DNA of 64,000 nucleotides from Candidatus Methylomirabilota bacterium (GTDB lineage Bacteria > Verrucomicrobiota > Verrucomicrobiia > Limisphaerales > SXQI01), in NCBI GenBank assembly GCA_035627835.1, contig DASPKX010000069.1, positions 10,451-74,450 on the forward strand, read 5' to 3'. Shown here in pieces: positions 19,316 through 61,514 of the stretch. Below the pieces are notes generated by a model. That model saw only the letters and a list, made by a program, of their open reading frames with translations. It had not been told where the DNA came from and made no database searches. Each line of letters starts with the position of its first letter. Position 1 is the first letter of the stretch. The position numbers and the translations under genes are program-made.

Positions 19316-19383
19316 GCGACAGTCAGCGATCGGGCAAAAGTTGCCTTAATATGTAGCGCCAGTAACGGCTCGTCACAACTCGC

Positions 19384-21386: not shown

Positions 21387-21758
21387 ATGAAAACGAGCGT
21401 TTCCGTGCTGGTCATCGCGGCGCTCTTTGTCGCCCTGCTCCTTAGTTGGGAACTCTTGGATTTTTGGCGCTCGAAAACGGAAAGCTGCGACAGGATAAAT
21501 ACTTCCGCAGTAGAGGGGAGTCTCGTTGTTTCGCTAAGGGCTCTTGAACTCTTGCGCAGCAATGAAGTCGCTGCAGCGTATTTGCGATTGCAGAACCACG
21601 CTTACGCTTGTGGGACCATGCTTTTGCAATCCGAGGAAGCACAGGCCGATCCGGGCATTCGCAGCTTGGCCGAGGAGCTTTATGCACTTCGGAACACCAA
21701 CGGCACACACACGTCAACCATGGTTGAGAGGCGTTTTCAGGAGCTGTTAGAGAAATAG
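21387..21758 (+). CDS. membrane-anchored hypothetical protein
   Basis: 123-aa ORF with an N-terminal TM (VSVLVIAALFVALLLSW) followed by a helical-looking domain. It sits in the more AT-rich islet. I recognise no family. Confidence 0.45.
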   Translation: MKTSVSVLVIAALFVALLLSWELLDFWRSKTESCDRINTSAVEGSLVVSLRALELLRSNEVAAAYLRLQNHAYACGTMLLQSEEAQADPGIRSLAEELYALRNTNGTHTSTMVERRFQELLEK

Positions 21759-21814
21759 CGCAGGATCGAGGCAGAACAGATGGCCGGGTGAACGCGGCGC
21801 GACTTACCGCAAAT

Positions 21815-21861
21815 CAAAGGCCAACCACCCAAAAGCAAAGGCCAACCACCCAAAAGCAAAG
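21815..21861. repeat. 21-bp direct tandem repeat, 2.2 copies
   Basis: caaaggccaaccacccaaaag occurs twice back to back (21815..21835, 21836..21856), followed by caaag. It lies 24 nt upstream of the next ORF. Confidence 0.9.
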
Positions 21862-21884
21862 TAGGCGATGAGTCACCACACATC

Positions 21885-22352
21885 ATGAATGCGCGATTGG
21901 AAGAACTTATTGAAGGCAGCGAACGTCTCACCTCGGTGTTCGGCGCTTGGCCAACATTCCACGATGCAGAAGTTGTGGAGCTGTATTTTGAGCGCGGGGA
22001 AGTCAACGAAGCGAGGAACGTCTTTGAGTTGCCGCGGCTGCTCGTCAAAGTTTTGCTGTTCGATGAGTATATGGGCCGGTTGCCGTTCGAGCATCAAAGT
22101 ATCGCGACGATCCTATTCAATGAGATTGAAGGGTTCTCAATGAAGGACTTTAATTATCAAAACGCAATCTACGGCTTGGACATTGAACCTTTTGAACGGG
22201 AGCCCACGCGTTTCAAGGTCTGTTTTGATGGGGCCTTCGGAATGAGCGCAGAGTTCAGATCCTCGGGCATTAAGGTGTTGAGCGTCATCGCATCGCAGCG
22301 AGGGGTCAGACCTGAGCTGGGTTTTGCGGAAAGTGACATGAAGGCCAGGTAG
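21885..22352 (+). CDS. small cytoplasmic hypothetical protein, possibly a polymorphic-toxin immunity-like protein (Imm50-like, tentative)
   Basis: 155-aa ORF with no signal peptide. The N-terminal FGAWPTFHDAEVVELYFERGE...LLVKVLLFD pattern resembles what I recall of Imm50-type immunity proteins. This is memory only. Confidence 0.5.
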   Translation: MNARLEELIEGSERLTSVFGAWPTFHDAEVVELYFERGEVNEARNVFELPRLLVKVLLFDEYMGRLPFEHQSIATILFNEIEGFSMKDFNYQNAIYGLDIEPFEREPTRFKVCFDGAFGMSAEFRSSGIKVLSVIASQRGVRPELGFAESDMKAR

Positions 22353-22831
22353 GCAACGATCCAGAACAGGGATGCAAACGGTCGTGCACTGCTTAAGGTC
22401 ACGTTAGTAAGGGGGATGTTGTTGAGAACTGATCCAAGATCGAGTGGCTTCACTGCGTTGTGGGTTTTGTGCGCCTCCATACGGAGGCTGGCATATGTGA
22501 GGATGTTTAACCCACGGGCTGCGCTGGCGCTTGCCCATGGGCTAGTCTGTTTGGCCACATCCGTGGCCAGCAAATATATGAGGGGATGGCGCCGTATTCA
22601 GCCTAACGGGAAGGACTCAACCTGAAGGTTGAGGCTACAAGGAGGAAGCTTGCCGTCGGGTTGAAAGATTTCTGACTTGTAGAAGCCGTCCCACTCACCT
22701 CCGCACCGAGCGTGCGGGGATGACGAATAATATAGCCCAACGGCTTGCGCTGCTCTGTGGGGGCCGCCAAGGCTCAGGAAGACGCAGCGGCCGCGAGGTC
22801 GGAACTGGCAAGTGCGCCTGAGCATTGCGAT

Positions 22832-23692
22832 TTACTGAGCGCCTGGCCTTTTGGCGGGCGGTTTGTATTCGGCGTGCCAGGAGAGTTGCCAAAGCTTTTC
22901 CAAGGGGACGGTCTCGCTGTGGCCGTCGTAGAAGCCGATGTTAATCCCGCCGGGCAAAGTCTCCTTGATCGCAGCCGCTGGTGGGGGCGAGGACGGAGCG
23001 CGTCCGTGCCGCGGAATGGCGAAGATTTCCATGCCGCGCGGATAGAAGTGCTCCGGTGGGCGGCCGCGATTTGCATCGTGCGGCCGCAGAAGATTGGTGG
23101 AGGGAAGATCGATCGCATGCGGCGTGGCGGCGAGGTCGGTGGCATCACCGAGCAGCGGGGTGCGGGCGGGTTCGATAACACGAGTTTCGCTTGTGAAAAG
23201 ATCTTTGGCGCGCAAAGGGGTCTTGCCGAGCTTGTAGAGAGAAGCTTCCAGGAAATGGAAGTTCACCCCAAAGCTTGCGTGATTGGTGGCGCGAAACTCG
23301 TAGCGATTCTGTGGGTCGGCGCCAAGGCCTCCATACCAATTGGCTCCCCAAGCGCCCAGGGTGCTCGCATTTAGGTGATCTTCGCGGATGGGAGCCGTGG
23401 GGCAAATCCAGGCCCCGTTAGTTTTCTGCATTTCACCAAGCCACCACTCGAAGATCTCGGGCTCAGCCAGGTTAGGGGCATCCTGAGCAGCGAGAAGAAA
23501 GCTAAGGGTGATCTGGCGGGATTGTCCGAGGCAGCGGGCGGTCTGGGCTTTGCGTTTGGCACGGGAGAGGGTTGGCAGCAGGAGTGAGGCGAGTATGGCG
23601 ACGATGGCAATAACGACGAGCAGCTCAATAAGGGTGAAGGCCCCGCGCCTTCGCAGCAATGCCCGCGCATGGGATTGCGCCATCAGAGACAT
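22832..23692 (-). CDS. DUF1559 / prepilin-type N-terminal cleavage-methylation protein with an H-X9-DG C-terminal motif
   Basis: RGAFTLIELLVVIAIVAILASLLLP is the type IV pilin-like leader and hydrophobic helix. The C-terminal GGINIGFYDGHSETV fits the H-X9-DG processing-associated motif common in Planctomycetes/Verrucomicrobia. Confidence 0.85.
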   Translation of the reverse strand: MSLMAQSHARALLRRRGAFTLIELLVVIAIVAILASLLLPTLSRAKRKAQTARCLGQSRQITLSFLLAAQDAPNLAEPEIFEWWLGEMQKTNGAWICPTAPIREDHLNASTLGAWGANWYGGLGADPQNRYEFRATNHASFGVNFHFLEASLYKLGKTPLRAKDLFTSETRVIEPARTPLLGDATDLAATPHAIDLPSTNLLRPHDANRGRPPEHFYPRGMEIFAIPRHGRAPSSPPPAAAIKETLPGGINIGFYDGHSETVPLEKLWQLSWHAEYKPPAKRPGAQ

Positions 23693-24192
23693 TGAAGATT
23701 AATATCAGTATTAAGGGCCGGACGGCAATTGGAATCGGGACGCTGCGCTTGCCGGCGCCACGTGTTATTGCCCCAAATGCTCGAAGAACGGGCTGCTTCG
23801 CTGCCACAGCCGCACCGTGCGTCCCCTGTTTTTTCGCGAATCATCTGCGGGCCTGCCCAATGTCCAGCTTCCAGAGCCCATTCTCCTTGGCTTAAGCATG
23901 TGCGTGTTCCGCTCCTGACATCGCCATATCGCTGCACATAAGCGATGGCGCGGGTTTGTCGTAGAAGCCGTCTCAGAAATACCCAAGCAGCGTCTTGCGG
24001 GTTTTCTGGCCGGATGCTTCGTTGCTCCTGAGTCGCACATCCATGCGGATATGCTCCTTCGCCGCGCCTCGCCTCCAGCCAAAATCGCTCGCAATCCACT
24101 TGCTGGTTATTCATGAGACGGCTTCTAGTGAAGGCACGGCACGAGTGACTGGAGTGCGGAAGGAATGATAGAATAAGCTAACAAAATCAAAG

Positions 24193-24756
24193 ATGGCGGC
24201 GTACAACCTACTCATGAAAGCCTTCCGACGCATCATCCTTGCTTCCGCCGCGGCCGCTTGCATTGGACACGCCTGCGGACAACTCCTCCCTCCGGAAGGT
24301 GACGGCGCCGCCGGAGGAGCGAAGGCAGTAGAACTGCCAATGCTTCAAGGCGCGTGGCAAGGGTTCCGAGAGGAGAATGTGTTCAGCGATCAACCGCCCG
24401 AGAAGGTCACGATCACGATCACTGGTTCCGCCTTGCGCTTCCATCGCGAGACAAACTTTTGGTTTGAGACAACCTTCACCCTGCCAGCGGGAACAAATCC
24501 GCAACAATTGCACGCCACGATCAAGGCCGCGCCAGCCCCACAGGCGGACAGTGTTGGCCAAGTCGTCGGCGCAATCATCAAGGTCGAACATGACACGCTA
24601 ACAATTGCGGATTACCCGATAAATGAACCCGCGCCTAAAACTTTTGCAGAGGCGAAGGGGCGTTATGTGCTCAAGAAAGTTCAACCTCCCGCTAAGACAA
24701 GCGAATCCAAGGTTCCTGAAAAGAGTGCGACGCAGAAAATCACCCCGCTAGGCTGA
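24193..24756 (+). CDS. secreted hypothetical protein, TIGR03067-like domain (tentative)
   Basis: 187-aa ORF with a signal peptide (IILASAAAACIGHACG). LQGAWQGF...ITITGSALRF...AIIKVEHDTLTIAD...PKTFAEAKGRYVLKKV follows the LqGtW...l.i.g....giyk.egd.L.i pattern I recall for the planctomycete TIGR03067 domain. Confidence 0.55.
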   Translation: MAAYNLLMKAFRRIILASAAAACIGHACGQLLPPEGDGAAGGAKAVELPMLQGAWQGFREENVFSDQPPEKVTITITGSALRFHRETNFWFETTFTLPAGTNPQQLHATIKAAPAPQADSVGQVVGAIIKVEHDTLTIADYPINEPAPKTFAEAKGRYVLKKVQPPAKTSESKVPEKSATQKITPLG

Positions 24757-24785
24757 ATATGACTCGGTGACGTTGCTGTGGTGAG

Positions 24786-25238
24786 TCAATGCGCAGCGGC
24801 GCTGCGGTGGCCGCAGAACTCGACTGCCATTTCCTCAAACAATGCTTGGAGATCTTCCAGGCGCGCCGGTTTCTCGAGCACTTTGTTGGCGCCGACTTTT
24901 TTCGCGGCCTCGAACTGGGCCGGGTTGGCCGAGCCGGTCAGGATAATCACCGGCAGATCGCACAATGGCGGCTCCTGGGCGCGAATCCACTCGACGAGGT
25001 CGGTCCCTGTTTCACCGTCCATGAGCAAGTCGGTGAGGATCACGTTGGGCATGGGATAAGTGGCACGATCGGCGTACATCCCTGCGCCGAGGAGGTACGC
25101 GCGGGCTTCGCTGCCATTACGGCAAACTGCGGAGAGTCCGCATAAGCCCCGCGTGAGAAGAGCGCGCCGGATGAGCAAGGCGTCATTGGCGTTGTTCTCC
25201 ACCACCAGGAACCTCGAATGGTCATTGGTCTGTTCCAA
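24786..25238 (-). CDS. single-domain response regulator (REC only)
   Basis: 150 aa. It carries RFLVVENNANDALLIRRAL, ILTDLLMDGETG (phospho-acceptor Asp context) and PVIILTGS...KVLEKP. Confidence 0.8.
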   Translation of the reverse strand: MEQTNDHSRFLVVENNANDALLIRRALLTRGLCGLSAVCRNGSEARAYLLGAGMYADRATYPMPNVILTDLLMDGETGTDLVEWIRAQEPPLCDLPVIILTGSANPAQFEAAKKVGANKVLEKPARLEDLQALFEEMAVEFCGHRSAAAH

Positions 25239-25499
25239 TGGTTTTAATCAACCTCAAGGCGGCCAAGGCATCAATTGGCGCGCCCCCGAGTTTGCTTGTG
25301 ATTCACGCCTGAAGGAACCAAGGGGGTAACTTCCCGATAGCGGCCCCTTTCGGGTGGAGGGGTTTTCCGCCTGATGGGAGGTGGAGGAAGATTAGGGGCG
25401 CGAACGGAACGCGTCCGCATCTGCCTTGGCTGAGACTTCAGCGGAGAGGTTTAAGAGAATGGACGCCGAGGGATGTTCGGGATTGAATGCCGCACACAA

Positions 25500-26057
25500 A
25501 TGGTTTGCAGGGTCGCGACACTCGAGGACTTGCCCGCGATCCGGGAGCTGATCCCGGTTTCGGTGCGCGGGTTGAGCAGGGATTTGTACACCACGGAACA
25601 GATCGAGAGCGCGCTTGTCCATGTGTTCGGGCCGGACACGCAATTGATCGTGGATGGGACGTATTTCGTTGTGGAACACGACGGGAAGTTGATCGGCTGC
25701 GGAGGGTGGAGCCGGCGAGCGGCGATTTTCGGCGGGGATCAGATGAAAGGAGCGGTCGACCCTTTGTTGGATCCACTGCGCGACCCCGCGCGGGTGCGGG
25801 CGTTTTTTGTGCATCCAGAATGGGCGCGGCGTGGAATTGGAACGCTGCTGCTGAAGGCGAGCGCTGAGGGGGCGGAGCGAGGGGGATTCTCCACGTTCGA
25901 ATTGGTCGGGACGTTGCCCGGAGAACGGTTGTATCGGCAGCACGGTTTTGAGTTGGTGGAGCGAATCCAGCATCCTTTGGAACCGGGATTGAGCATCGAG
26001 TGGGTTCGAATGCGCGCGCCGGTAAAAGTGGTGTTGGAGTCACTGGCAGCACGATGA
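25500..26057 (+). CDS. GNAT-family N-acetyltransferase
   Basis: YFVVEHDGKLIGCGGWS...RAFFVHPEWARRGIGTLLLKASAEGA...LYRQHGFELV is the GNAT motif A region. ATG at 25500 chosen; the track ORF starts at an alternative codon at 25473. Confidence 0.8.
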   Translation: MVCRVATLEDLPAIRELIPVSVRGLSRDLYTTEQIESALVHVFGPDTQLIVDGTYFVVEHDGKLIGCGGWSRRAAIFGGDQMKGAVDPLLDPLRDPARVRAFFVHPEWARRGIGTLLLKASAEGAERGGFSTFELVGTLPGERLYRQHGFELVERIQHPLEPGLSIEWVRMRAPVKVVLESLAAR

Positions 26058-27076
26058 ATGCGGTCGAGCTTCATGCGGTTGCCAAGTCGTTCCGCGCGGG
26101 AAAGCAGGAGGTGCGCGCGGTTACAGGTGTGTCGTTGACCGTGGTTCGGGGCGAGTATTTTGTGTTGGTCGGGCCGTCCGGCTCGGGCAAGACGACGCTG
26201 CTGCGGCTGATAGCTGGCCTTGAGGAGGTCTCGGCGGGAACGATCAACTTCCCTGCCCTCGCGAGTCGCGCCACCCAGGGTGAAATGGTGGCGATGGTGT
26301 TTCAGTCACCGGCGTTGTTCCCCCACTTGAACGTGGCGCAGAACATTGGCTTTAGCCTCATGCTGGTAAAGAAGCCGAAGTCGGAAGTGGACGCCACAAG
26401 CCGCAGAATCGCCGAGCAGCTCGGATTGGCCGGTTTGCTGCAGCGCATGCCTTCCGAGCTTTCGGGGGGTGAGCAGCAGCGTGTGGCGCTGGGTCGGGCC
26501 TTGGCGCAAGACGCAGCGATCGTGCTGCTGGATGAGCCGTTGTCCAACCTCGATTTGGGAAGCCGAACACGGATTCGGCGGGAGTTGAAGCAGGCGCAAA
26601 GGCGAACAGGGAAAACATTCATCCATGTTACCCATGACCAGGGGGAGGCCATGGCCTTGGCCGACCGCATGGCCGTGTTGAAGAATGGCGAGCTTCAGCA
26701 ACTGGGCAAGCCGATGGAGGTTTATCAGGAGCCGAAGAACCTCTTCGTGGCACGGTTTATTGGGCAGCCAGAAATGAACATTCTTCCTGCGGAGTTGTTG
26801 GCCGAAGTGGGACTGCCGCCCGGCGCAAAAGGCATGGTCGCGGGGTTTCGGCCCGAGGCTACAAAGTTCGTTCATAGCGATGCGGCGGGAACACGTTGGC
26901 GGATTACCGCAGTCGAGGCGTTCGGGTGGGAACAACATGTCTGGGCGAGCAATGGTGAGTTTGAAGTCGCCGCGCGAGCGCCCGCCAAAGCGCCGTTCGA
27001 ATGCGGGGATGCTGTGCGGGTTGAAGCGGCGAAAACGCTAATGTTCGATGCGGTGACAGGCGTCCGCGCCCGTTGA
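26054..27076 (+). CDS. ABC transporter ATP-binding protein, MalK/UgpC-like with a C-terminal regulatory (TOBE-like) domain
   Basis: Walker A is GPSGSGKTT, the signature is LSGGEQQRVALGRAL, Walker B is VLLDEPLSNLD, and the H-loop is VTHDQ. The ATG at 26054 forms an ATGA overlap with the GNAT stop. Confidence 0.85.
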   Translation: MNAVELHAVAKSFRAGKQEVRAVTGVSLTVVRGEYFVLVGPSGSGKTTLLRLIAGLEEVSAGTINFPALASRATQGEMVAMVFQSPALFPHLNVAQNIGFSLMLVKKPKSEVDATSRRIAEQLGLAGLLQRMPSELSGGEQQRVALGRALAQDAAIVLLDEPLSNLDLGSRTRIRRELKQAQRRTGKTFIHVTHDQGEAMALADRMAVLKNGELQQLGKPMEVYQEPKNLFVARFIGQPEMNILPAELLAEVGLPPGAKGMVAGFRPEATKFVHSDAAGTRWRITAVEAFGWEQHVWASNGEFEVAARAPAKAPFECGDAVRVEAAKTLMFDAVTGVRAR

Positions 27077-27116
27077 GCGGGCTTGGTATGCCAGAGGCGA
27101 GCGCTACAGTTTTTCT

Positions 27117-27338
27117 ATGGATCGAGCGATTGTATTCAAGAGTCTGGACCCGGCGGCAGCGGAGTTGGTGTGCTCCCGGCTGCGGGCGGCTGGTTTTCAC
27201 GCAGAGGTCGAGCATGAGCTTTCGGCCACTACAGCCACGGGCTGGACATTAGGCGCGGGCGGGATTCGCGTGGCGGTGCCAGCGGGGGAAGCAGTGGACG
27301 CAAAGGCGTTGCTGGACGCTGAAAACTCACAAGCTTAA
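27117..27338 (+). CDS. DUF2007-like small protein (putative signal-transducing fold)
   Basis: 73 aa. VFKSLDPAAAELVCSRLRAAGFHAEVEHE ... GIRVAVPAGEAVDAKALL fits the DUF2007 pattern as I recall it. Confidence 0.55.
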   Translation: MDRAIVFKSLDPAAAELVCSRLRAAGFHAEVEHELSATTATGWTLGAGGIRVAVPAGEAVDAKALLDAENSQA

Positions 27339-27340
27339 CC

Positions 27341-28711
27341 ATGCCCGCGCCATCTCCTCTGAAACGGCTGCAGAAACAACTCCGGCCCGGCGAACTCGTT
27401 TTCGATGAACCGACGCTAAAGGCGCATGCGGGCGACAAATGGTTCGCGGCGGCGATGCCGGAAGCGGTCGCGTTTCCAACGGACACCGCAGCGGTGTCGA
27501 AAGTTCTAGCCTTTGCGTCGAGGCACAAAATCCCAGTCACCGCCCGAGGCGCTGGGTATGGGTATGTTGGCGGATGCGTTCCGAGCAAGGGTGGGATCGC
27601 CCTTTCGTTAATGCGCATGAACCGCATCCTCGAGATCAATCCGGATGATTTCGTGGCTGTAGTGCAGCCGGGCGTTCTTACCGAGCACCTGCAGAAGGAG
27701 GTGGAGAAAGTGCGTCGGTTTTATCCGCCGGATCCAGCCAGCCGCGCCGATTGCAGCATCGGGGGGAATATCGCGACGAACGCGGGGGGGCCGAGGTGCC
27801 TCAAGTACGGCGTCACCCGCGAATATGTGCTGGGGCTGGAGGTTGTATTAGCCGACGGAACGATTGCGCGTGTCGGCGGGCGGACGCACAAGAACAAGAC
27901 GGGGTTCGACCTGGCGAAGCTCTTCGTGGGGTCCGAGGGAATGCTGGGAGTCGTCACAGAAGCGACCTTGAAGCTCCTTCCCCTGCCCCCTTTTCGTGCC
28001 TGCCTGGCGGTGGGATATCGCTCGATGAAAGAGGCCAATGCGGCCATTCGCGGCATTTTCAACAGCGGCTTGCTCCCCTGCGCTTTGGAGCTGGCCGACG
28101 ATTTTACTTTAAGTGCGGCGCGCAAACGCACCAGGAGCCCACTGCTGGAAGGCTGCCGCGCCCACATGATAATCGAGCTGGATGGCCAGGAGAAATCGGT
28201 CCGGTCAGAGATGAAGGTCTTGGAAGCAGCCGTAGGCACACCGATCACGGTGGCGCGCGCCTTTGGACCCGAAGCGTGCGAGAAGATTTGGCAGATTCGG
28301 CGTGAGTTTTCGTATTCCCTGCGCGACACCGGCCTGACAAAGCTAAACGAGGATATCGTGGTGCCGCGCGGCCGCTTGGAAGAGTTGTTCGGGTTCGCAG
28401 GCGAATTGCAAGCGAAGCACGGGTTGCAGGTGGCGTGCTTCGGACATGCGGGCGATGGGAACATCCACGTGAATGTGATGGTCGATTTAACCAAGCCCGG
28501 TGCACAGAAGAAATCGGAAGCGGCCCTGGATGATTTGTTTAAAAAGATCGTGGCTTTGGGTGGGGCGATCACGGGGGAGCATGGGATTGGCCTGGCCAAG
28601 AAGACCTGGTGGCCGTTGGCCGTTTCGAAAGAGGTGCGCGGGTTGCATCACAGGGTTAAGTCCGCGTTGGATCCGGACGGCATCCTGAATCCTGGGAAGT
28701 TCTTAGGTTAG
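27341..28711 (+). CDS. FAD-linked oxidase (GlcD / D-lactate dehydrogenase family)
   Basis: 456 aa. VTARGAGYGYVGG and GGNIATNAGG form the FAD-binding PCMH blocks. C-terminal GHAGDGNIHVN and GAITGEHGIG are present. Confidence 0.85.
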   Translation: MPAPSPLKRLQKQLRPGELVFDEPTLKAHAGDKWFAAAMPEAVAFPTDTAAVSKVLAFASRHKIPVTARGAGYGYVGGCVPSKGGIALSLMRMNRILEINPDDFVAVVQPGVLTEHLQKEVEKVRRFYPPDPASRADCSIGGNIATNAGGPRCLKYGVTREYVLGLEVVLADGTIARVGGRTHKNKTGFDLAKLFVGSEGMLGVVTEATLKLLPLPPFRACLAVGYRSMKEANAAIRGIFNSGLLPCALELADDFTLSAARKRTRSPLLEGCRAHMIIELDGQEKSVRSEMKVLEAAVGTPITVARAFGPEACEKIWQIRREFSYSLRDTGLTKLNEDIVVPRGRLEELFGFAGELQAKHGLQVACFGHAGDGNIHVNVMVDLTKPGAQKKSEAALDDLFKKIVALGGAITGEHGIGLAKKTWWPLAVSKEVRGLHHRVKSALDPDGILNPGKFLG

Positions 28712-38920: not shown

Positions 38921-40255
38921 TTAATCCTTGAAGATGGAATGATACCATTTCTTCGGAGCTGCGGAGGCATTCTGGAGACCTGCCTTTTTGCGGATACTTT
39001 CAAGTTCCCAGCCTGTGAGGGCGGCGAGCGTTTGGGCTTCCTTCTCCTGGCGCGCAGCTAACGCGGTCCGGTACGTGGCGACTTCAGGGCAGGATCCCTC
39101 CCCTTTCCATGAATGCCGCAGAATATAGCGGCCCTGGAAGTTCTCGCGGTTGCTCGTTTCCTGGAAGACGAGATCTTCAGGAAACTTCTCCCCATCGTAG
39201 CGGACATGAAGGCGAGTGATGTAAACAATTTGGGGCTGCGCGACGCCGGCGCGTTGCTCAGTTTTGACCCGCGGCAACCAGAACGCACCCAGGCGGCGTA
39301 GCTGGTCGTTGGAGAGCGGGTCGGCGGCACACGGATCACACCAGCCCATGTCCCAGGCGTATTCGAGAAACACCGCGCGCATGTCTTCCTTTTTCACCTG
39401 TTGGTCGAACATGGCTTTATAGAACTCCTTGAACTCGTTCTTCACGTAAACGGGGAGTTCGGCATCGGTCTGCAATTTGACAGTGCGATAATTCACCGTC
39501 TCCACGCGGCCGCGCTCTGAGAGCGCATAGATGAATAATTCCTGCGGGCCGTTGGCGTTCACCGTTCCGAGGCGAATCGGCAGCATGAACTTGGGGCTTT
39601 CATAAGCAACCTGCAGCGGGCGCAAGAACTGAAAGCCGAGGCGCGCTTGCTCCTTCAGGTTCACCTTGGCCACAAAGAACCGCATGTTCTGTTTGATGTA
39701 GCTTTCGAGGACGCGCGCAGCGCCTGCTGGGAGCTTGTAACCGTTGCTTTGGAGATAAGTGGCCAACCCGCTACTCTCCTTTGCGGAGAGCAGTTGGATG
39801 TCGTACTCGCCGACGGTGTATTGAGCTTCAACCTGAACGCCGAGGGCAGCGGCTAATTCACGCTTCTCGTCGCGAGCGGCGGCTGCGGGGCGGGAGGCGC
39901 GCTCGAGGAGCAACCGGGTGGCGCAAGGATCTTCGTCGAAGTACTCCACCAAGCGCGGAGCGGTGTAGGCGTCCAAATGCTCCACGAGCCACTTGTCTGT
40001 GACGTTAATCTGGTCCCTCTCAAGAAAGGTCGGCACTGGAATGACCATGGCAAACTCAGTGGGGTCACCCTGGTAGTCGTTGACCATGGTGAGCACGGTT
40101 TTGTCCTCCTTGCGCGCGATGACAACTTGAGAGGCTTTGTTGAAAAGCTTGGCATCGGCCTTCGCGACATAGAATCCGCAGAATGCGTGCGCTGCAGGCA
40201 TTGTGAGAGCAGCCGCGCAAAGGGCCGCGGTGAGAACGGTGAGAATTCGGCACAT
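38921..40255 (-). CDS. DUF2330 exported protein, paralogue B
   Basis: Start chosen at MCRILTVLTAALCAAALTMPAAHA (ATG 40255); an alternative ATG at 40276 is possible. The mature end is FCGFYVAKADAKLFNKASQVV. The 595-aa track ORF is an upstream out-of-frame run through the preceding gene. Confidence 0.8.
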   Translation of the reverse strand: MCRILTVLTAALCAAALTMPAAHAFCGFYVAKADAKLFNKASQVVIARKEDKTVLTMVNDYQGDPTEFAMVIPVPTFLERDQINVTDKWLVEHLDAYTAPRLVEYFDEDPCATRLLLERASRPAAAARDEKRELAAALGVQVEAQYTVGEYDIQLLSAKESSGLATYLQSNGYKLPAGAARVLESYIKQNMRFFVAKVNLKEQARLGFQFLRPLQVAYESPKFMLPIRLGTVNANGPQELFIYALSERGRVETVNYRTVKLQTDAELPVYVKNEFKEFYKAMFDQQVKKEDMRAVFLEYAWDMGWCDPCAADPLSNDQLRRLGAFWLPRVKTEQRAGVAQPQIVYITRLHVRYDGEKFPEDLVFQETSNRENFQGRYILRHSWKGEGSCPEVATYRTALAARQEKEAQTLAALTGWELESIRKKAGLQNASAAPKKWYHSIFKD

Positions 40256-40262
40256 AAGATCG

Positions 40263-41576
40263 TTATTTGAAGACATTGTCGTACCACTTCGCCGTGCGAG
40301 GCGGGGTGAGGCCCATTTGTTTGCGGATGTTGGCGATATCCCAGCCCGTGAGCGAAGCGAGTGTTGCGGCCTCCTGCTCCTGTCGGGCTGCGACAGATTT
40401 TGAATACTGCTCCAGTTCAGGGCAGTTGCCTGTCCCCTTCCATGGATGCTGCAGGATGTAGCGGCCCTGGAAATTGCTGCGGTCGCCTGTCTCCTGAAAA
40501 ACCAGATCCTCAGGAAAATGCTCGGCGTCATAGCGAACGTGCAGTCGAGTGACGAAGACGTTTTCCGGTGAAGGCCCGCGACCGCGCTCAGCCTTGGCAG
40601 CAGGTTCCAGCCAAAACACACCGAGCTTGCGAAGTTCCTCGCGTGAAAGCGGATCGGCAGCGCAGGGATCGCACCAACCCATGTCCCAGGCGTATTCAAG
40701 AAAGACAACGCGCATATCCTCCTTCTTCACCTGTTGGTCGAACATGGCTTTGTAAAAGCTCGCGAAATCCTTCTTCACATAAACGGGAAGATTCAGGTCG
40801 CTCGGAATCCGGACCGTGCGATAGTTCACGCATTCGACGCGGCCTTTGCGTGTGAGCGCGTAAACGTAAAGGTCCTGCGGGCCATTGGCGTTCACGGTGC
40901 CGAGGCGTATCGGGAGCATGAACTTGGGGCTTTCGTAAGCGACTTGAATGGGGCGCAGTGTCGTGAAGCCGAGCTTTGCCTGCTCCGCAAGGTTCACCTT
41001 GGCCACGAAGAAGCGCATCTTTTGCTTGATGTAGGTTTCGAGGACACGCGCGGCGCCCGGAGGTGTTTTGTATCCGTTGGTTGTGAGCCAGCGTTCCAAT
41101 CCCCCGCTCTCCGCCGCCGAGAGGATGGATATGTCGTACTCGCCGACGGTGTAGGAAGCCTCGACGCTGACGCCGAAGGAATCACGTCTCTGCTCGGCCT
41201 TCGCGGCTGGTTGCGCGGCCATGCTGTACAACCGGCGATACACCTCTTCCGCACAGGGGTCGCGGTCAAAATACTCCACCAAGCGAGGAGCGGAATAGGC
41301 ATCGAGATGCTGCACCGGAGCGGTGTCGCCAATGTGGATTTGATCCTTCTCCAGGAAAGTTGGAACCGGCACTACCAGTGCGAATTCCTTTGGGTCACCT
41401 TGGTAATCGCTGACCATGGTGAGCACGGTTTTATCGCCGTCGCGGACGAGAACGACCTGAGATGCTTTGTTAAAGAGCTTTGCGTCGGCCTTTGCGACAT
41501 AGAAGCCGCAGAAAGCATGGGCGGGCGGAGCTAACAAGAGGAGCGCGATGAGAGCGCTAAGCGCGAGCAGGTTCAT
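40263..41576 (-). CDS. DUF2330 exported protein, paralogue A
   Basis: 437 aa with signal MNLLALSALIALLLLAPPAHA, then FCGFYVAKADAKLFNKASQVV. It is colinear with paralogue B along the whole length, by my eye roughly two thirds identical. Confidence 0.85.
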   Translation of the reverse strand: MNLLALSALIALLLLAPPAHAFCGFYVAKADAKLFNKASQVVLVRDGDKTVLTMVSDYQGDPKEFALVVPVPTFLEKDQIHIGDTAPVQHLDAYSAPRLVEYFDRDPCAEEVYRRLYSMAAQPAAKAEQRRDSFGVSVEASYTVGEYDISILSAAESGGLERWLTTNGYKTPPGAARVLETYIKQKMRFFVAKVNLAEQAKLGFTTLRPIQVAYESPKFMLPIRLGTVNANGPQDLYVYALTRKGRVECVNYRTVRIPSDLNLPVYVKKDFASFYKAMFDQQVKKEDMRVVFLEYAWDMGWCDPCAADPLSREELRKLGVFWLEPAAKAERGRGPSPENVFVTRLHVRYDAEHFPEDLVFQETGDRSNFQGRYILQHPWKGTGNCPELEQYSKSVAARQEQEAATLASLTGWDIANIRKQMGLTPPRTAKWYDNVFK

Positions 41577-42438
41577 AAATGGGGTTTTGTGGAATGGTGT
41601 TCGATTGAGATGAGTGAGCGCGTGGAGCGGCCCAGCTATAGCGCGCGCCGGGGAAGAGAAAGTTCAGGAGGGGCGTGGCAAGTGAGCAGAACGCGAGGCT
41701 CCAGAGGAGACCATTTTGACGGAACAGCTTGAACTGCACGTAAGCGCCGCCCAGAGCGACAAGAAAGGCAAAGATAATTCGACCGGGGCGTGACTCCGGA
41801 GTCGTTTTGGGGTCCGAGATCATAAAGAAAGCGAACAGGAGCAGCGCGCCGTTTTGAATGCGGTGAAAAGGAATGGCCAATGGCTCGTTCAACCACGCGG
41901 AGCGGGCAAATAGAATGCCGCAGTGGAAGATGAGGAAAGCAACTGTGACGTCCGCGCGCGCCGCTCTCGTAACCACGAGCGAACCGAGGCAGAGCATTAG
42001 GAACGCGAAGAATGCAAAATTGCCCCACTGCCCCGGAGAGACCCACGCTTTGTCACTCGCCACGATAAGGAGAGCCACGATCGCAATGTTCGTGGGGTTG
42101 AATAGGTGCCCGCCTTTCAAGCGAATGAAGAACTTCGTTCCAATGGCCAGAGCAGCGGCAGCGGGGACGAGCCAGAGATGATTCGTTCGTAGGAGCAGGC
42201 ACAGGGATAAGCCCGAAATCATCGCGCTTTTAAATTCCACTCGCGCGAGGTGAACGGCTCTAGAGCAGAGAAACTGGAAGATGAGCGTTGATGCCAGGGT
42301 GACTCCGATCTGTGCAATGGAGACCTGGAAATCCAACTGGAAGAGGCCGTAAAGAAGAAGCAGCGAGAGAGCTGCAATCTGATAGTCGCGCGGGTCGGAA
42401 CCCAGGGAGCCACTCTGCCTCAACCATGCTGTGCGCAT
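41557..42438 (-). CDS. polytopic membrane protein of the NQR2/RnfD/RnfE-like family (short form)
   Basis: 293 aa with about 8 hydrophobic helices. The N-terminal DPRDYQIA, GHLFNPTN and FFMISDPKTTP resemble the FNP and M-x-TDP-x-T blocks of RnfD/NqrB-type proteins. It overlaps the next gene by 20 nt. Confidence 0.65.
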   Translation of the reverse strand: MRTAWLRQSGSLGSDPRDYQIAALSLLLLYGLFQLDFQVSIAQIGVTLASTLIFQFLCSRAVHLARVEFKSAMISGLSLCLLLRTNHLWLVPAAAALAIGTKFFIRLKGGHLFNPTNIAIVALLIVASDKAWVSPGQWGNFAFFAFLMLCLGSLVVTRAARADVTVAFLIFHCGILFARSAWLNEPLAIPFHRIQNGALLLFAFFMISDPKTTPESRPGRIIFAFLVALGGAYVQFKLFRQNGLLWSLAFCSLATPLLNFLFPGARYSWAAPRAHSSQSNTIPQNPIYEPARA

Positions 42439-42520: not shown

Positions 42521-42937
42521 TCAGGAAGCTGAGCGGTTGTTGGGCGCCGGCCGGAACGAATGGTTAGGGAAGTAACGCGCAAACAACGATTTCAGCTCCG
42601 CAAGCGTGAATGGCTTGCGAAGAAAATTTTCTCCGGCTCGCAAGTGGAGCCGCTCTTCGATGTCGATCGGGACGGAGCCGCTCATGAAGGCCATGGAGAT
42701 CTTCAGATTATGCTCCTGCACGAACTCGTGGATCACTTCGCCCGTGCCGCCGGGGAGAAGAATGTCGGTGAAGATCATGTCAAAAGGCATCTGTTGAATC
42801 AGCTCTATGGCCTCGGCGGCGGAGGCAGCCACCTCGGTCGCAAAACCAAGATGCCTCAGGAGCAAAGCCACGGTGGTCCTGACATCCACCTCATCATCAA
42901 CCACCAACACCCGCAAGTTCAGATCCCCTTTTTCCAT
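42521..42937 (-). CDS. single-domain response regulator (REC only)
   Basis: LRVLVVDDEVDVRTTVALLLRHLGF...MIFTDILLPGGTG...FLRKPFTLAEL. Start chosen at MEKGDLN; the track ORF is 49 codons longer. Confidence 0.8.
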   Translation of the reverse strand: MEKGDLNLRVLVVDDEVDVRTTVALLLRHLGFATEVAASAAEAIELIQQMPFDMIFTDILLPGGTGEVIHEFVQEHNLKISMAFMSGSVPIDIEERLHLRAGENFLRKPFTLAELKSLFARYFPNHSFRPAPNNRSAS

Positions 42938-43147: not shown

Positions 43148-45565
43148 ATGAGACTCATCACCGCAGCCAAGCTGCCGCTCTATTTGTTCGCGTTGCTGAT
43201 GACGCTGCCTGTGTTCATCGCAATGGCGGCGATCCCGAACTTTTGGACCCGGGTTTTCACAGACAATAACTTCCTCCCGCACGCCACATGTTATCTCCGG
43301 AATCCGCAGATGGTGGCGCTGCACGCGAGTTCGGATTTCCTGATCGGATTAGCCTATGCGGGCATCTCCGCCACGCTGGCATACATGCTCTACCGGGCGC
43401 GAAAGGACATCCCCTTTCAATGGATGTTTTCGGCGTTCGGAATCTTCATTGTGGCGTGCGGTGTGACTCACTTCATGGAAGTGGTCACTGTTTGGCGGCC
43501 GTTATATTGGGCAGCCGGTTTAATCAAGGCCATCACGGCTGCAGCATCCGTGGCGACAGCGGTTGCGCTCCCATTTCTTCTGCCGAAAGTCTTCAGCCTT
43601 ATACAAACAGCAAAAGCGAGCGAGAGCCGGAGAGTTCAGTTGGAGGAAGCGCATGCGAAGCTGGAAGATCTCTACAAGAAAGTTAAAGAGCTGGATGAGC
43701 TGAAGAGCCGGTTCTTTGCGAATGTGAGCCATGAATTGCGCACACCGCTGACGCTGGTGCTGGGAAGCGCGGATCGAATTCGGCACACGCCTGCGGCAAG
43801 CGCGGTGCGCCACGAAGCGGAGGGGATCAAGCGCAACGCGCTGGTGCTCTTGCGCAACGTCAACGACCTCCTCGACGCTTCGAAGTTAGATGCCGGCAAA
43901 ATGAAGCTGCAGTGCCAGCGCGTGGACGCAGGGGCTTTCATTCGTCGCGTGGCTTCGAACTTCAGCTCGCTCGCGGAAGAGCGAAGCATTGCGTTCAACG
44001 TTTCCGCGCCCGACGGGCTCATCGCAGAGGTTGATCCCGAAAAAGTGGAGCGAGCCCTGCTGAATTTGCTGTCGAACGCATTCAAGTTTGTCCCGAACGG
44101 GGGGGAAATTGAGGTTCACGCGGAGCAGGCCGCAGGCTCACTGCTGGTAGTCGTGCAGGACGACGGGCCAGGATTGCCGCCCAGCTTCTTGCCAAAGGCT
44201 TTTGAGCGGTTCCAGCAGGCGGATAACACAGACACTCGCAAACATGGCGGCACCGGGCTGGGCCTCTCGATAACGAAAGAATTTGTGGAGCTGCACGGCG
44301 GCTCGATTGGCGTCAGGAATGTTGAGCCGCACGGAGCGCGCTTCGAGTTCACGCTCCCGCTGGCGGCTGCGAAAGGAACGCTGGTTGAAAGCGAGGGGGC
44401 GGGGCAAACCAGGAACGATCTGGCAGCGCAGGCGCTGGCTGGTCTCGCGCCAATCCCAAAACAGGAGGCGAGGGCCGCGCGCGGGACCGGGGCATTGGTC
44501 CTGGTGGCTGAGGACAACCCGGAAATGAGGCAATTCATTGCCGAGACATTGAACGCGGAGTACCGCACGAGCACAGCGCCGAATGGCAGAGAGGCTCTGC
44601 GGCAACTCGAAGCCGGGCCGCTGCCGGACTTGATTGTGAGCGACATCATGATGCCGGAAATGAGCGGCGAGCAACTGCTGGAGCAAGTGCGCGCGCGCTC
44701 GGAACTGGCAGATCTGCCAGTGATCATGCTTTCTGCAAAAGCCGAAGAGGATCTACGTGTGAAACTGTTGCGCGCTGGCGCGAATGATTACCTCGTTAAA
44801 CCATTCTATCCCGAAGAGCTAAAGGCGCGCGCGCAGAACCTGATTGCGTTGAAGCAAGCCAGGGAGCAACTCAAGGATGCCAACCAGCAGTTGGATCAAT
44901 TCAACGCTTCCGTGTCGCACGACCTGCGCGCGCCGCTAAGAAGCATCAAAAGCTTCGCTTCGTTTCTGCGCGAGGAGCACATGGCTTCACTCGATTCAGC
45001 GGCGAAGGATTATTTGCGCCGCATCACCGACAACGCGGAGCGGATGTCGCGACTGCTGGAGGATTTGCTGTCGTATAGTCAAATAACGCGCATGGAGCTG
45101 AAGCCGGAGCGCGTCAGTTTGCAGCAGGCCCTGGAGCAGGCGCGGGCCAGCCTGGAAGGCCAGGTGGTGGAAGCCGGCGCGGAAATCCGGCTAGAGGGGC
45201 CCCTTCCTGACGTGGTAGGGAACGCCACCGTGCTGAACCAGGCTGTGGTTAACCTGCTGGGCAATGCGATGAAGTATGTGGCTCCAGGAGTGAAACCCTT
45301 CGTGCGCATCTCAGCGGAGCAGCGCGGGAAGATGGTGCGGGTGATTATCCGCGACAACGGCATCGGCATTGAGCCGAAGTACCATCAGAAGATTTTCGAA
45401 ACATTCCAACGACTGCATTCAGAACGACAGTACAGCGGCACAGGCCTGGGGTTGGCTCTGGTCAAGAAAGGGATCGAGCGCCTGGGAGGACAAGTGGGCG
45501 TGGATTCCGAGGCCGGCCGCGGCAGCGCGTTTTGGTTCGAGCTGCCAGCAGCGCCGAATACCTAA
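43148..45565 (+). CDS. membrane sensor kinase: ethylene-binding-domain-like 3-TM N-terminus, HisKA-HATPase, receiver, and a second HisKA-HATPase
   Basis: The N-terminus is SSDFLIGLAYAGISATLAYMLYRARKDIPFQWMFSAFGIFIVACGVTHFMEVV...LIKAITAAASVATAVALPFLLP (see findings). First kinase: FFANVSHELRTPL ... GGTGLGLSI. Receiver: LVLVAEDNPEMRQF...LIVSDIMMPEMSG...DYLVKPF. Second kinase: FNASVSHDLRAPL ... GTGLGLALV. ATG at 43148 chosen; TTG at 43139 is possible. Confidence 0.9.
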   Translation: MRLITAAKLPLYLFALLMTLPVFIAMAAIPNFWTRVFTDNNFLPHATCYLRNPQMVALHASSDFLIGLAYAGISATLAYMLYRARKDIPFQWMFSAFGIFIVACGVTHFMEVVTVWRPLYWAAGLIKAITAAASVATAVALPFLLPKVFSLIQTAKASESRRVQLEEAHAKLEDLYKKVKELDELKSRFFANVSHELRTPLTLVLGSADRIRHTPAASAVRHEAEGIKRNALVLLRNVNDLLDASKLDAGKMKLQCQRVDAGAFIRRVASNFSSLAEERSIAFNVSAPDGLIAEVDPEKVERALLNLLSNAFKFVPNGGEIEVHAEQAAGSLLVVVQDDGPGLPPSFLPKAFERFQQADNTDTRKHGGTGLGLSITKEFVELHGGSIGVRNVEPHGARFEFTLPLAAAKGTLVESEGAGQTRNDLAAQALAGLAPIPKQEARAARGTGALVLVAEDNPEMRQFIAETLNAEYRTSTAPNGREALRQLEAGPLPDLIVSDIMMPEMSGEQLLEQVRARSELADLPVIMLSAKAEEDLRVKLLRAGANDYLVKPFYPEELKARAQNLIALKQAREQLKDANQQLDQFNASVSHDLRAPLRSIKSFASFLREEHMASLDSAAKDYLRRITDNAERMSRLLEDLLSYSQITRMELKPERVSLQQALEQARASLEGQVVEAGAEIRLEGPLPDVVGNATVLNQAVVNLLGNAMKYVAPGVKPFVRISAEQRGKMVRVIIRDNGIGIEPKYHQKIFETFQRLHSERQYSGTGLGLALVKKGIERLGGQVGVDSEAGRGSAFWFELPAAPNT

Positions 45566-55120: not shown

Positions 55121-56011
55121 TTACGCCTTCGGCGTTTCGCCCTTCAAAACATTGATGAATTGGCGCATTGCAGGTGAAAGAACCTTGTTCTTCTTGTAAA
55201 TGGCCGCGAGAGGGCGGAAGAACTCGTCATCTTCCAATTCCACCTGCACGAGAGTGCTCTTGGAGACTTCCTGCGTGATGGTGCCTTTCGGAACGATGGA
55301 GATGCCGGCGTCGATTTCCACGGCCCGCTTCACGGTTTCAATGTTGTCGAACTCCATGACGTGATCAACCTGGACACCGTGGTCCTTGAAGATTTTGTCA
55401 ATGGCTTTGCGGGTGGGGATGTCTGGCTCGAAGCCGATAAAGCGTTGGCCGCTGACTTCCTGGAGCTTCACACCCTTGGCTTTGGCAAAAGGATGCTGAG
55501 GATGGCAGATAAGCACCATCTTGTCCTTGCGCAGAGGGACGACTTCGAGGCGCGGGTCTTTGGCGGGGTAAGCAACCAGGCCAAGGTCAACCACATTGCC
55601 GAGCACGTCATCGTACACCTGGTTGGCCCGGCGATACTCCACATGCACGTTCACCGTGGGATAGCTCTTGAGGAACTTCTTCAGGTACGGCGGGAGATCG
55701 TGAAGGCCGATGCTGTAAATGGTGGCGACGCGAATGGTTCCAGAAACGATGTCTTTGATCTCCTGCAGCTTGTTATGGAGAGAATCGTAGGTCTGGATGA
55801 TTTGCTTGCTGTAATCGTACAAAACCTGGCCTTCACGAGTGAGGCGGAACTTCTTTTTGCTCCGCTCAATCAAGAGTGAGTTAAAGGTTTTCTCGAGGGA
55901 ACTGATCTGCTGGCTCACTGCAGACTGGGTGATCTGGTTAATCTGAGCGGCTTTGGTGAAGCTCTCAGTTTCAGCGAGATCGCAGAATACTTTCAGGGTT
56001 TCAATTTGCAT
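55121..56011 (-). CDS. LysR-family transcriptional regulator
   Basis: MQIETLKVFCDLAETESFTKAAQINQITQSAVSQQISSLE is the LysR wHTH. 296 aa with a substrate-binding-type C-terminal domain. Confidence 0.9.
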   Translation of the reverse strand: MQIETLKVFCDLAETESFTKAAQINQITQSAVSQQISSLEKTFNSLLIERSKKKFRLTREGQVLYDYSKQIIQTYDSLHNKLQEIKDIVSGTIRVATIYSIGLHDLPPYLKKFLKSYPTVNVHVEYRRANQVYDDVLGNVVDLGLVAYPAKDPRLEVVPLRKDKMVLICHPQHPFAKAKGVKLQEVSGQRFIGFEPDIPTRKAIDKIFKDHGVQVDHVMEFDNIETVKRAVEIDAGISIVPKGTITQEVSKSTLVQVELEDDEFFRPLAAIYKKNKVLSPAMRQFINVLKGETPKA

Positions 56012-56053
56012 ATTAAGGGAAACTTAGCAGGGAAAATTGTTAGACGCGCGGGG

Positions 56054-57535
56054 TTACGCGGCAGATTCGGAATTGGCCAGGGTTTGCTTAACCTTCCTAA
56101 GAAGATCCTGGCTGGTGAACGGCTTTTGCAGGTAGCTCTCATCCTCATTCGCGCCGGCCGTGCGGACAAACCCGCTGGAGCAAATGATCTTCACGTCTGG
56201 CGCGGTTTGGCGCAAACGCTCGACAACCTCTCGGCCGCTCATTTGCGGCATGACCATGTCCGTTATCACTAAATCTATTTCGCCAGCGTGCTGATTGAAC
56301 AACTCCAAGCCTTTGGCTCCGCTGTTGGCGGTCAGCACCTGGTAGCCAAACGAGGAGAGCACCATCTGCCCCATCGTTAGCAGCAAATCCTCATCATCGA
56401 TCATCAGGATCGTCTCCGTGCCGGTGAGGTCGTCGTCTTTCAACGCGCGGTCCTTCACGAACTTCCTAACAGCCGGCAAATACAGCGACACGTTCGTGCC
56501 ACGGCCAGGGTTGCTGGAGACAGTGACGCTGCCGCCATGGTTCGTCACGATCCCGTAAACCCACGCCAAGCCCAACCCTCGATGCGGCGGATTCTTCTTC
56601 GTTGTGAAGAAAGGCTCGAAAATCCGAGGCAAAGCTTCCGGAGTGATCCCGATCCCATCATCAGCCACGAGCACTTTCACGTAACTGCCAGGCCCCAGCC
56701 GAGCTGAGCCGTCGTGGAGGGATTCTTCCACATCTATATTCCGCGTCACGACTTTAATCGAGCCGCGCCCCGGAAGCGCTTGGACGGCGTTCTCGAGCAC
56801 TTTCGTGATCGCTTGCTGGAGTTTGGCTTCGTCAAAGTGAGCTGCGTACAGCTTCAGCTCGAAGTCCAGGCTCCATTCCACCGGAGATTGACTGCGGAAG
56901 ATATCGACGGTTCGCCGCAATAAGTCATTCAAATTTCCAGCGGGCTGGCTTTGCGTCTCCTTGTCATTGCGGCTGAAAGCAGCCAGATCGTGCGCGATTT
57001 CAGCGGCTTTTTCGGCGGATTTTTCAATTTCCCCCAGGGAGCTTCTCCAAGGATGGCCCGCCTCCATCTTGGATAAAATCAGCGAGGTGTGCCCAAGAAT
57101 GCTCGTGAGCGCGTTATTAAAGTCGAGAGCCACCGTGCGCGAGAGCTGCAGGGCGCAGTCGAGCTTTTGCTTTTGCGCATGCGCGTCATGCGGAGAATGC
57201 GCCTCGGCCGCGGCCTTGGGTTCCGGCAGCAATTGCAAAAGGATCTGCCTCTCCGCTGTGACACCTTGCTGCGGACAAACGACCGCTTGAAAGCTTGCGG
57301 GGCCGTTCGGTGTGCGAACAGCAAGGAGGCCATGAACAGCGGAGCCTCGTTGCCATTTAGCCAAAGCTTGCTCAAAGGGAAGCGGATCCAGCCAGAAACT
57401 GCGGAAAGAAGCTCCCTCAACGGTCGCGCCGAGCACACCTTTTGCGCCCTGGCTCGCTGCTCGTATAGTTCCTTGGTCGTTCAGGAGCAGCGCTGGCCAG
57501 TTGGCTGAATCTAGGGCAAACAAGTCCTGCTTCAT
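56054..57535 (-). CDS. hybrid sensor histidine kinase / response regulator (cytoplasmic, PAS-like N-domain)
   Basis: FNNALTSILGHTSL is the H-box, GLGLAWVYGIVTNHGG is the G-box, and the C-terminal receiver is ILMIDDEDLLL...LVITDMVMPQMSG...LQKPF. Confidence 0.85.
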   Translation of the reverse strand: MKQDLFALDSANWPALLLNDQGTIRAASQGAKGVLGATVEGASFRSFWLDPLPFEQALAKWQRGSAVHGLLAVRTPNGPASFQAVVCPQQGVTAERQILLQLLPEPKAAAEAHSPHDAHAQKQKLDCALQLSRTVALDFNNALTSILGHTSLILSKMEAGHPWRSSLGEIEKSAEKAAEIAHDLAAFSRNDKETQSQPAGNLNDLLRRTVDIFRSQSPVEWSLDFELKLYAAHFDEAKLQQAITKVLENAVQALPGRGSIKVVTRNIDVEESLHDGSARLGPGSYVKVLVADDGIGITPEALPRIFEPFFTTKKNPPHRGLGLAWVYGIVTNHGGSVTVSSNPGRGTNVSLYLPAVRKFVKDRALKDDDLTGTETILMIDDEDLLLTMGQMVLSSFGYQVLTANSGAKGLELFNQHAGEIDLVITDMVMPQMSGREVVERLRQTAPDVKIICSSGFVRTAGANEDESYLQKPFTSQDLLRKVKQTLANSESAA

Positions 57536-61429: not shown

Positions 61430-61514
61430 GCCCGCGTGGCGGAATTGGCAGACGCGCTAGATTCAGGTTCTAGTGAGTAACATCGTACAGGTTCAAGTCC
61501 TGTCGCGGGCACCA
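61430..61514 (+). tRNA. tRNA-Leu (anticodon CAG), type II with long variable arm, CCA encoded
   Basis: Hand-folded. Acceptor GCCCGCG/CGCGGGC (7 bp), D-arm GCG-GAATTGGCAGA-CGC, anticodon stem CTAGA/TCTAG with loop TTCAGGT (CAG), a 14-nt variable arm, T-arm ACAGG-TTCAAGT-CCTGT, and discriminator A followed by CCA. Confidence 0.9.

Follow-up and report, generated by a model that had tools for sequence, protein, structure and literature searches.

A predicted ethylene-binding hybrid sensor kinase with a kinase-receiver-kinase output in a Verrucomicrobiota genome

We analysed a 64,000-nucleotide stretch of contig DASPKX010000069.1 (hereafter the window), from an assembly that GTDB places in the Verrucomicrobiota, and focused on one gene that encodes an 805-amino-acid membrane-bound hybrid sensor kinase (43148..45565, + strand). 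Its residues 55-150 (43310..43597, +) are, on homology, almost certainly a true ethylene-binding domain (EBD) of the ETR1/SynEtr1/AzoEtr1 family, and this domain runs directly into a histidine kinase, after which come a receiver and another kinase. We assign a probability of roughly 60% to the reading in which the complete chain works as a Cu(I)-dependent sensor of ethylene or a small alkene, signalling through a His195-Asp499-His591 relay to a separate regulator. Judged against its homologues, the protein appears to be a fairly ordinary uncharacterised member of a known family, for which binding is predicted.

The open reading frame (ORF) extends over 43139/43148..45565 (+), and the identical protein is present in public gene calls, with an ATG at 43148 and a length of 805 residues; all residue numbers given here follow that start. 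Public data already tag this protein with PF25487 (ETR1_N). Pfam domains and a full-length AlphaFold2 (AF2) model with a mean confidence (pLDDT) of 84.9 define the order EBD, kinase 1, receiver, kinase 2, and the AF2 model of residues 1-172 has a pLDDT of 84. Upstream of the EBD lies a hydrophobic segment (residues 1-27; 43148..43228, +) with a predicted AF2 helix at 11-27/28 and the strongest Kyte-Doolittle peak of the protein, which the model suggests to be either an extra, fourth transmembrane helix or a signal-peptide-like leader. In the Pfam scan, neither a GAF nor a PAS domain separates the EBD of the window protein from the kinase, and no sensory domain besides the EBD was detected.

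The family assignment is supported by two independent profile comparisons. PF25487 ('Ethylene receptor 1-like, N-terminal domain') matches at 112.4 bits (E=1.3e-32), where the gathering score is 27 bits, and covers model positions 2-96/97. An hhalign comparison of a 42-sequence bacterial alignment with 19 plant receptors yielded a probability of 99.4% (E=4.6e-21) and covered all three helices, which AF2 together with hydropathy places at residues 53-84 (TM1), 91-116 (TM2) and from 120 onwards (TM3). Several of the database plant receptors carry the name ethylene receptor. The ETR1 sequence aligned here is 91% identical to the best database plant receptor and served for numbering only.

Residue equivalences were obtained by MAFFT alignment with the database plant receptors and by an HMM-anchored alignment that comprised about 380 EBDs and was later enlarged to 460. 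The alignments equate Asp63, Tyr70 and Ile73 with ETR1 Asp25, Tyr32 and Ile35; Phe100, Ile101 and Cys104 with Phe61, Ile62 and Cys65; and Thr107, His108 and Lys127 with Thr68, His69 and Lys91. These nine positions (D, Y, I, F, I, C, T, H, K) are 95-100% conserved among 370-378 aligned EBDs. Asp63 in TM1 (codon GAT, 43334..43336, +) is Asp in 353 of 370 sequences. In TM2, the segment Cys104-Gly-Val-Thr-His108 (43457..43471, +; Cys104 = TGC at 43457-43459, His108 = CAC at 43469-43471) corresponds to Cys65 through His69 of ETR1, the Cu(I) site of a domain whose Cu(I) binding is established (PMC10266040), and within this putative copper site Cys is retained in 376, Thr in 373 and His in 377 of 378 sequences. 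The ETR1 substitutions Y32A, F61A and I62A reduce binding, and Tyr32, Phe61 and Ile62 line the modelled ethylene pocket (PMC8879215). Ile35, equivalent to Ile73, also counts as a pocket residue. The original prediction had described an N-terminus matching the EBD, with a Cys and a His aligned to Cys65 and His69 and an Asp and a Tyr aligned to Asp25 and Tyr32; the peptide, reading frame and codon coordinates on which it relied are all correct, the profile search that it proposed returned a significant match across the whole PF25487 model, the four residues proved to be Cys104, His108, Asp63 and Tyr70 in the MAFFT alignment, and the conservation check that it suggested found all four kept in the family at the level given above.

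Covariation within the family points in the same direction. Lys127 in TM3 (codon AAG, 43526..43528, +) is equivalent to Lys91, the proposed polar partner of Asp25, and a polar bridge or coupling between Asp25 and Lys91, with a role for Lys91, has been described in ETR1 (PMC10266040). Across the alignment, the Asp25 and Lys91 positions are occupied by D-K in 397 sequences, N-R in 11, D-R in 5 and N-K in 1 (uncorrected Fisher p 4e-17), so that Asn at the first position is paired with Arg at the second in 11 of the 12 bacterial EBDs that have it. This exchange of D/K for N/R fits the bridge of ETR1 (PMC10266040) and, as a pattern drawn from sequences, appears to lend it independent support.

Between the EBD and the first kinase, AF2 predicts a single unbroken helix over residues 120-213 (43505..43786, +) that comprises TM3, the linker and helix 1 of the dimerisation and histidine phosphotransfer (DHp) domain of kinase 1. 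In 174 of about 215 relatives, His108 and His195 lie 87 residues apart; the less frequent spacings of 80, 73 and 94 residues are offset from this by steps of 7, a pattern that argues for rigid coiled-coil coupling in a fixed heptad register. Kinase 1 (HisKA + HATPase_c, about residues 180-406; 43685..44365, +) carries the H-box FFANVSHELRTPL with the phospho-acceptor His195 (codon 43730-43732), and its N, G1, F and G2 boxes were read from the translation. An internal receiver follows (residues 451-562; 44498..44833, +; Pfam Response_reg E=3e-27), with the phospho-acceptor Asp499 (codon 44642-44644) and Lys551 located; both columns are invariant in 44 orthologues. In the AF2 model, its helix alpha-5 passes without interruption into the second DHp domain, forming a predicted helix that spans residues 555-611. 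Kinase 2 (HisKA + HATPase_c, about residues 582-802; 44891..45553, +; Pfam and AF2) contains His591 (codon 44918-44920), and its best PDB sequence matches are bacteriophytochrome-type kinases. His195 and His591 are as invariant in the 44 orthologues as Asp499, and the H, N, G1, F and G2 boxes as well as the receiver motifs are intact in the window protein. The layout originally proposed, in which the EBD leads straight into HisKA with no GAF domain, is borne out by the Pfam scan and the 120-213 helix; that proposal had overlooked the receiver and the second kinase module.

These features can be combined into a mechanism. The protein would be an inner-membrane sensor in which Cys104 and His108 of helix 2 serve as the Cu(I) ligands, with Asp63 assisting. 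By homology, the most likely ligand would be ethylene or a closely similar small alkene, which would diffuse into the membrane and bind there. The polar bridge between Asp63 (helix 1) and Lys127 (helix 3) may then report the ligand and move TM3; since helix 3 is unbroken into the His195 dimerisation helix, a ligand-induced shift of helix 3 would reach kinase 1 directly, and the continuous TM3-DHp helix would alter autophosphorylation at His195 in a fixed heptad register. By analogy with LvrA and LvrB of Leptospira, the phosphate might pass from His195 to Asp499 of the internal receiver, and phosphorylation of the receiver might activate kinase 2 (His591) by way of the receiver's own unbroken signalling helix. 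The final step would be phosphorylation of a free response regulator by kinase 2, and the nearest candidate regulator is a receiver-only protein encoded at 42521..42937. Outputs known from Synechocystis and Azospirillum comprise surface, biofilm and motility traits.

The candidate regulator is a 138-amino-acid single-domain protein whose gene (42521..42937, - strand; Pfam Response_reg E=5e-16) is divergent from the kinase gene and whose translation contains the acidic pair, the Asp, the Ser/Thr and the Lys of a receiver. It is the only plausible partner of the sensor kinase and a candidate phospho-partner. The neighbouring receiver is likewise divergent in the closest Verrucomicrobiota locus, where the kinase is 52.5% identical over its full length, and in about 12 of 80 related loci a receiver-only ORF of about 130-186 amino acids is located no more than 0.6 kb from the EBD gene.

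Several results weigh against the proposed chain. Only a minority of the related loci have such a neighbouring receiver, and synteny does not extend further, which makes the cognate regulator a guess; in the 80 related loci, no homologue at E<=1e-10 was found for any gene that flanks the kinase gene in the window. No genes for copper chaperones or ATPases, or for ethylene or ACC (1-aminocyclopropane-1-carboxylate) metabolism, were found across the 64 kb. The best NCBIfam match of the protein, LvrA (NF047465), leaves the N-terminal 182 model positions uncovered and scores 593 bits (residues 170-803 against model positions 183-817), far below the cut-off of 1200; the relay is therefore proposed by analogy. 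A PDB sequence search with the N-terminal 175 residues returned no match even at E<=10, and when the AF2 EBD model was compared with the PDB by Foldseek, the best E was 0.7 and all matches were generic helical ones; neither search thus found a solved EBD structure for comparison. Finally, the window protein departs from the EBD signature, as the alignment reads it, at one position: Ser74 (codon TCC, 43367..43369, +) stands where plant receptors have the proline equivalent to ETR1 Pro36. The original alignment with ETR1 was accurate overall but had missed this change.

Ser74 is the sole key binding-helix residue that differs from both the plant receptors and AzoEtr1. Wang et al. (2006) reportedly placed Pro36 among the canonical 'seven required residues' of ETR1, and Nr and etr2-1 are alleles at this position. 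The proline is described as strongly conserved in ethylene-binding proteins, known as well as putative (PMC3212723, PMC12214528); the AtETR1 P36L mutant is described as retaining <5% of ethylene binding in the part of PMC3212723 that cites Wang et al. 2006, and as having lost binding altogether in PMC12214528. Among bacterial-type (PHxxC-bearing) sequences, a sample biased toward relatives of the window protein, the position is Ser in 361 of 396 and Pro in 13, AzoEtr1 being among the latter. No Ser-type EBD with tested binding was found in the literature. Given the replacement of Pro36 by Ser74 and the loss of binding in P36L, ethylene binding is not deducible from conservation alone.

This pattern raises the alternative that the clade with Ser in place of Pro36 retains the fold and Cu(I) and has a different ligand profile, a reading that we consider rather unlikely. 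Such proteins might bind ethylene with much lower affinity, or might prefer a different small pi-acceptor or unsaturated molecule, for example other alkenes, CO or acetylene. The contrast between a predominant Ser in bacteria and the Pro of plants and of the ethylene-binding AzoEtr1 fits this view, as does the near-abolition of AtETR1 binding by P36L (PMC3212723, PMC12214528), and the Ser type occurs across very diverse soil and freshwater phyla, including the alkane/alkene-associated Methylocella. However, all other binding, cofactor and bridge residues are retained; Ser is small and unlike Leu, so that P36L does not predict the effect of P36S; and Pro-type and Ser-type EBDs share the kinase-receiver-kinase chassis, which suggests the same signal. 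If the alternative were true, the term ethylene receptor, as understood in plants, would not apply to most bacterial 'EBDs'. A more specific version, which we hold to be unlikely and put forward tentatively, is that the Ser-type PHxxC clade as a whole consists of Cu(I) membrane sensors with another ligand or affinity range, connected by a rigid helix to a two-stage kinase cascade; were the clade tuned differently in this way, most homology-predicted 'bacterial ethylene receptors' would need re-assignment.

The PHxxC motif bears on a second alternative. It reads P44-H45-x-x-C48-Y-L in the window protein (43277..43297, +), lies just before TM1 in a predicted periplasmic position, and falls outside the Pfam ETR1_N model; the family consensus is PHxxCYLW, against PHATCYLR in the window protein. 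Its His is conserved in 315 of 319 and its Cys in 319 of 321 sequences, nearly as invariant as the copper ligands, and in the MAFFT alignment the Cys falls in the column of plant Cys4. The motif might serve either for a periplasmic disulfide or for copper entry, and no remark on its His was found in the literature consulted. With His45 and Cys48 (predicted periplasmic) and Cys104 and His108 (TM2), the protein contains four near-invariant potential copper ligands, and the homologous ETR1 domain is an established Cu(I) binder (PMC10266040). It is therefore conceivable that the protein senses its own Cu(I) loading, loss or oxidation, perhaps via PHxxC, without a gas ligand. We regard this as improbable: the tested homologues respond to ethylene and use copper as a cofactor (PMC11819568, PMC6682694), the pocket residues Tyr70, Phe100 and Ile101 are conserved as strongly as the copper ligands, and no copper-resistance genes lie nearby. 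A ligand-less membrane anchor or dimerisation module on a kinase that is regulated elsewhere is highly improbable, for although stand-alone EBD proteins of about 180 amino acids exist, we found no direct evidence for an anchor role, the intramembrane D, C, T, H and K are 95-100% conserved in about 400 sequences of 40-60% overall identity, the D/K-to-N/R covariation indicates selection on a functional site, and the window protein has no other sensory domain.

Copper-dependent sensing of ethylene or a small alkene thus stays the preferred reading. The family to which the protein belongs is very common in bacteria. A search with the full-length protein produced 6318 matches at E<=1e-30. The best 120 of these all contain PF25487, HisKA, HATPase and REC (receiver) domains at 39-55% identity (the window's own entry excepted); they are mostly 800-900 amino acids long with 95-100% query coverage, the longer ones adding PAS or GAF domains, and they originate from filamentous cyanobacteria (Leptolyngbya, Phormidium, Nodosilinea, Microseira, Laspinema), Blastocatellia and a Verrucomicrobiota metagenome-assembled genome (MAG). 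An EBD profile retrieved 9840 clusters (50% identity) at E<=1e-3, of which 4082 are at E<=1e-30, and in GTDB species genomes an EBD relative is encoded at no fewer than 590 loci, which span Verrucomicrobiota, Nitrospirae, Chloroflexota, Methylocella, Cyanobacteria, Acidobacteriota, Armatimonadota and Burkholderiaceae. Among named relatives, those nearest to the window protein belong to Verrucomicrobiota MAGs, at about 53% identity, and the best match among GTDB species genomes, also in a Verrucomicrobiota MAG, reaches 64% over part of the EBD. The shared domain types of all 120 best homologues, the GTDB loci and the 4082 clusters do not support the rarity implied by the original prediction.

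Architectures within the family vary. Among 80 fetched loci, 24 encode EBD-HK-REC-HK proteins (HK, histidine kinase), 11 encode variants thereof, 16 encode EBD-HK proteins, and 22 encode an EBD alone or with an output that our probes did not recognise. An EBD leading straight into HisKA therefore appears, from these homologues, to be a standard bacterial arrangement. A division in which Ser-type EBDs accompany direct-to-kinase layouts and Pro-type EBDs accompany PAS/GAF layouts was rejected, as there are kinase-receiver-kinase proteins with Pro-type EBDs as well. EBD proteins of about 140-200 amino acids that stand alone, with no output domain, recur notably in Methylocella MAGs (L006, L013, L038, L056, L058) and in Ca. 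Manganitrophus (P0047) and Exilibacterium (P0247); their genes lie on long contigs and are therefore not fragments.

Because thousands of bacterial proteins share the domain, many with the same layout, the window protein is best seen as an ordinary family member. Bacterial EBD proteins have been recognised for years, a Pfam model exists, and two of them (SynEtr1 and AzoEtr1) have been shown to bind ethylene. Direct proof of bacterial ethylene perception has so far come from one cyanobacterium and Azospirillum only, and if the window protein does bind ethylene, a soil or freshwater lineage, perhaps the Verrucomicrobiota, would join the bacteria that perceive this plant and soil gas. For specialists, the interest lies in two family-wide traits, neither unique to the window: in the form of the EBD most common among bacteria, Ser occupies the position at which plants need Pro36, and an unbroken helix of fixed length often joins the domain to an LvrA-like kinase-receiver-kinase cascade. 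The fusion of an EBD with a double kinase offers a compact system in which to study how an intramembrane gas site drives a kinase.

The genes around the sensor kinase are housekeeping or unrelated, comprising an M16 peptidase, LeuRS, FtsH, TilS, a UvrA-like protein and sugar-related oxidoreductases. The stop codon of the kinase gene (45563-45565) overlaps that of the convergent M16 peptidase gene (45562-45564), and no intergenic terminator lies between the two. A promoter consensus scan detected no promoter-like site, and terminator-like sites were no more frequent than in shuffled controls. Adjoining the response regulator gene are two tandem DUF2330 genes followed by an RnfD/NqrB-like membrane protein gene (38921..42438, -); one DUF2330 gene has a long N-terminal extension in the ORF list. 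Two more two-component loci are present in the window, one encoding a Reg_prop/Y_Y_Y HisKA_3 kinase with a LuxR-type regulator (5644..9311, -) and the other a kinase-receiver hybrid adjoining a LysR regulator (55121..57535, -). Rfam and ARAGORN identified tRNA-Leu(CAG) (61430..61514, +) as the sole RNA gene of the window. The region 1..28000 encodes 3-keto-disaccharide hydrolase/DUF1080, ThuA and GFO/IDH/MocA oxidoreductase proteins, an N-terminal-methylation (prepilin-like) protein and large Laminin_G_3 + Big_5 proteins, a gene content that is merely compatible with PVC-type genomes.

Comparison with characterised systems shows which parts of the protein have precedents. The output half most closely resembles LvrA of Leptospira, a PAS-DHp-CA-REC-DHp-CA protein (CA, catalytic domain) that autophosphorylates at His218 and transfers the phosphate preferentially to its own Asp524 (PMC5863495). 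The window protein shares the DHp-CA-REC-DHp-CA order with LvrA over 634 residues, including both His residues and the receiver Asp. In LvrB, phosphorylation of the receiver leads the signalling helices to form a coiled coil and frees the catalytic domain, and linker lengths in receiver-controlled kinases of this kind favour multiples of seven (PMC13269768); the continuous helix from the receiver to the second DHp and the family's linker lengths that step by 7 are features held in common with LvrA and LvrB. LvrA differs in being cytoplasmic with a PAS sensor, whereas the window protein is membrane-bound with an EBD, and no LvrB-like receiver-kinase gene adjoins the window gene, whose neighbour is receiver-only. 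As its score lies under the LvrA cut-off of 1200, the window protein is not an orthologue, and the analogy is one of mechanism only.

The plant receptors (EBD-GAF-HK with or without a receiver) share the homologous three-helix Cu(I) domain with its nine equivalent residues, as well as an N-terminal Cys placed where a dimer disulfide might form, and the N-terminal hydrophobic segment of the window protein recalls subfamily-2 plant receptors. Identity is 27% only, however, with Pro36 in the plant proteins against Ser in the window protein, which also has a shorter TM2-TM3 loop. Plant receptors further possess a GAF domain and signal through CTR1/EIN2, whereas the window protein has a double-kinase output and lacks the GAF domain that defines the plant-type EBD-GAF-kinase arrangement.

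SynEtr1 (slr1212) of Synechocystis PCC 6803, an EBD-cyanobacteriochrome-HK protein, is a dual light and ethylene receptor (PMC6682694). By layout, it resembles the window protein in joining a bacterial EBD to a functional histidine kinase with phosphotransfer to a response regulator, and differs in its PAS/GAF photosensory domains, of which the window protein has none.

Also among the closest characterised systems is AzoEtr1 of Azospirillum brasilense Sp7, an EBD-PAS-HK protein of 525 amino acids that binds 14C-ethylene (PMC11819568) and that we recovered as a 525-amino-acid ORF from A. brasilense Sp7 plasmid p1 (locus L082, 2462..4039). Unlike the window protein, AzoEtr1 keeps Pro36, carries a PAS domain that separates the EBD from its single kinase, and does without the extra N-terminal hydrophobic segment. 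The two EBDs are 40.6% identical over 95% of the query, and both proteins have the PHxxC motif (LPHGVCLFW in AzoEtr1) and a short TM2-TM3 loop. The AzoEtr1 gene, like the window gene, adjoins a gene for a small single-domain response regulator (135 amino acids in AzoEtr1; PMC11819568). The key-position signatures, HCDYIPFICTHK in AzoEtr1 and HCDYISFICTHK in the window protein, are identical at 11 of 12 positions, with only the Pro/Ser position differing between them.

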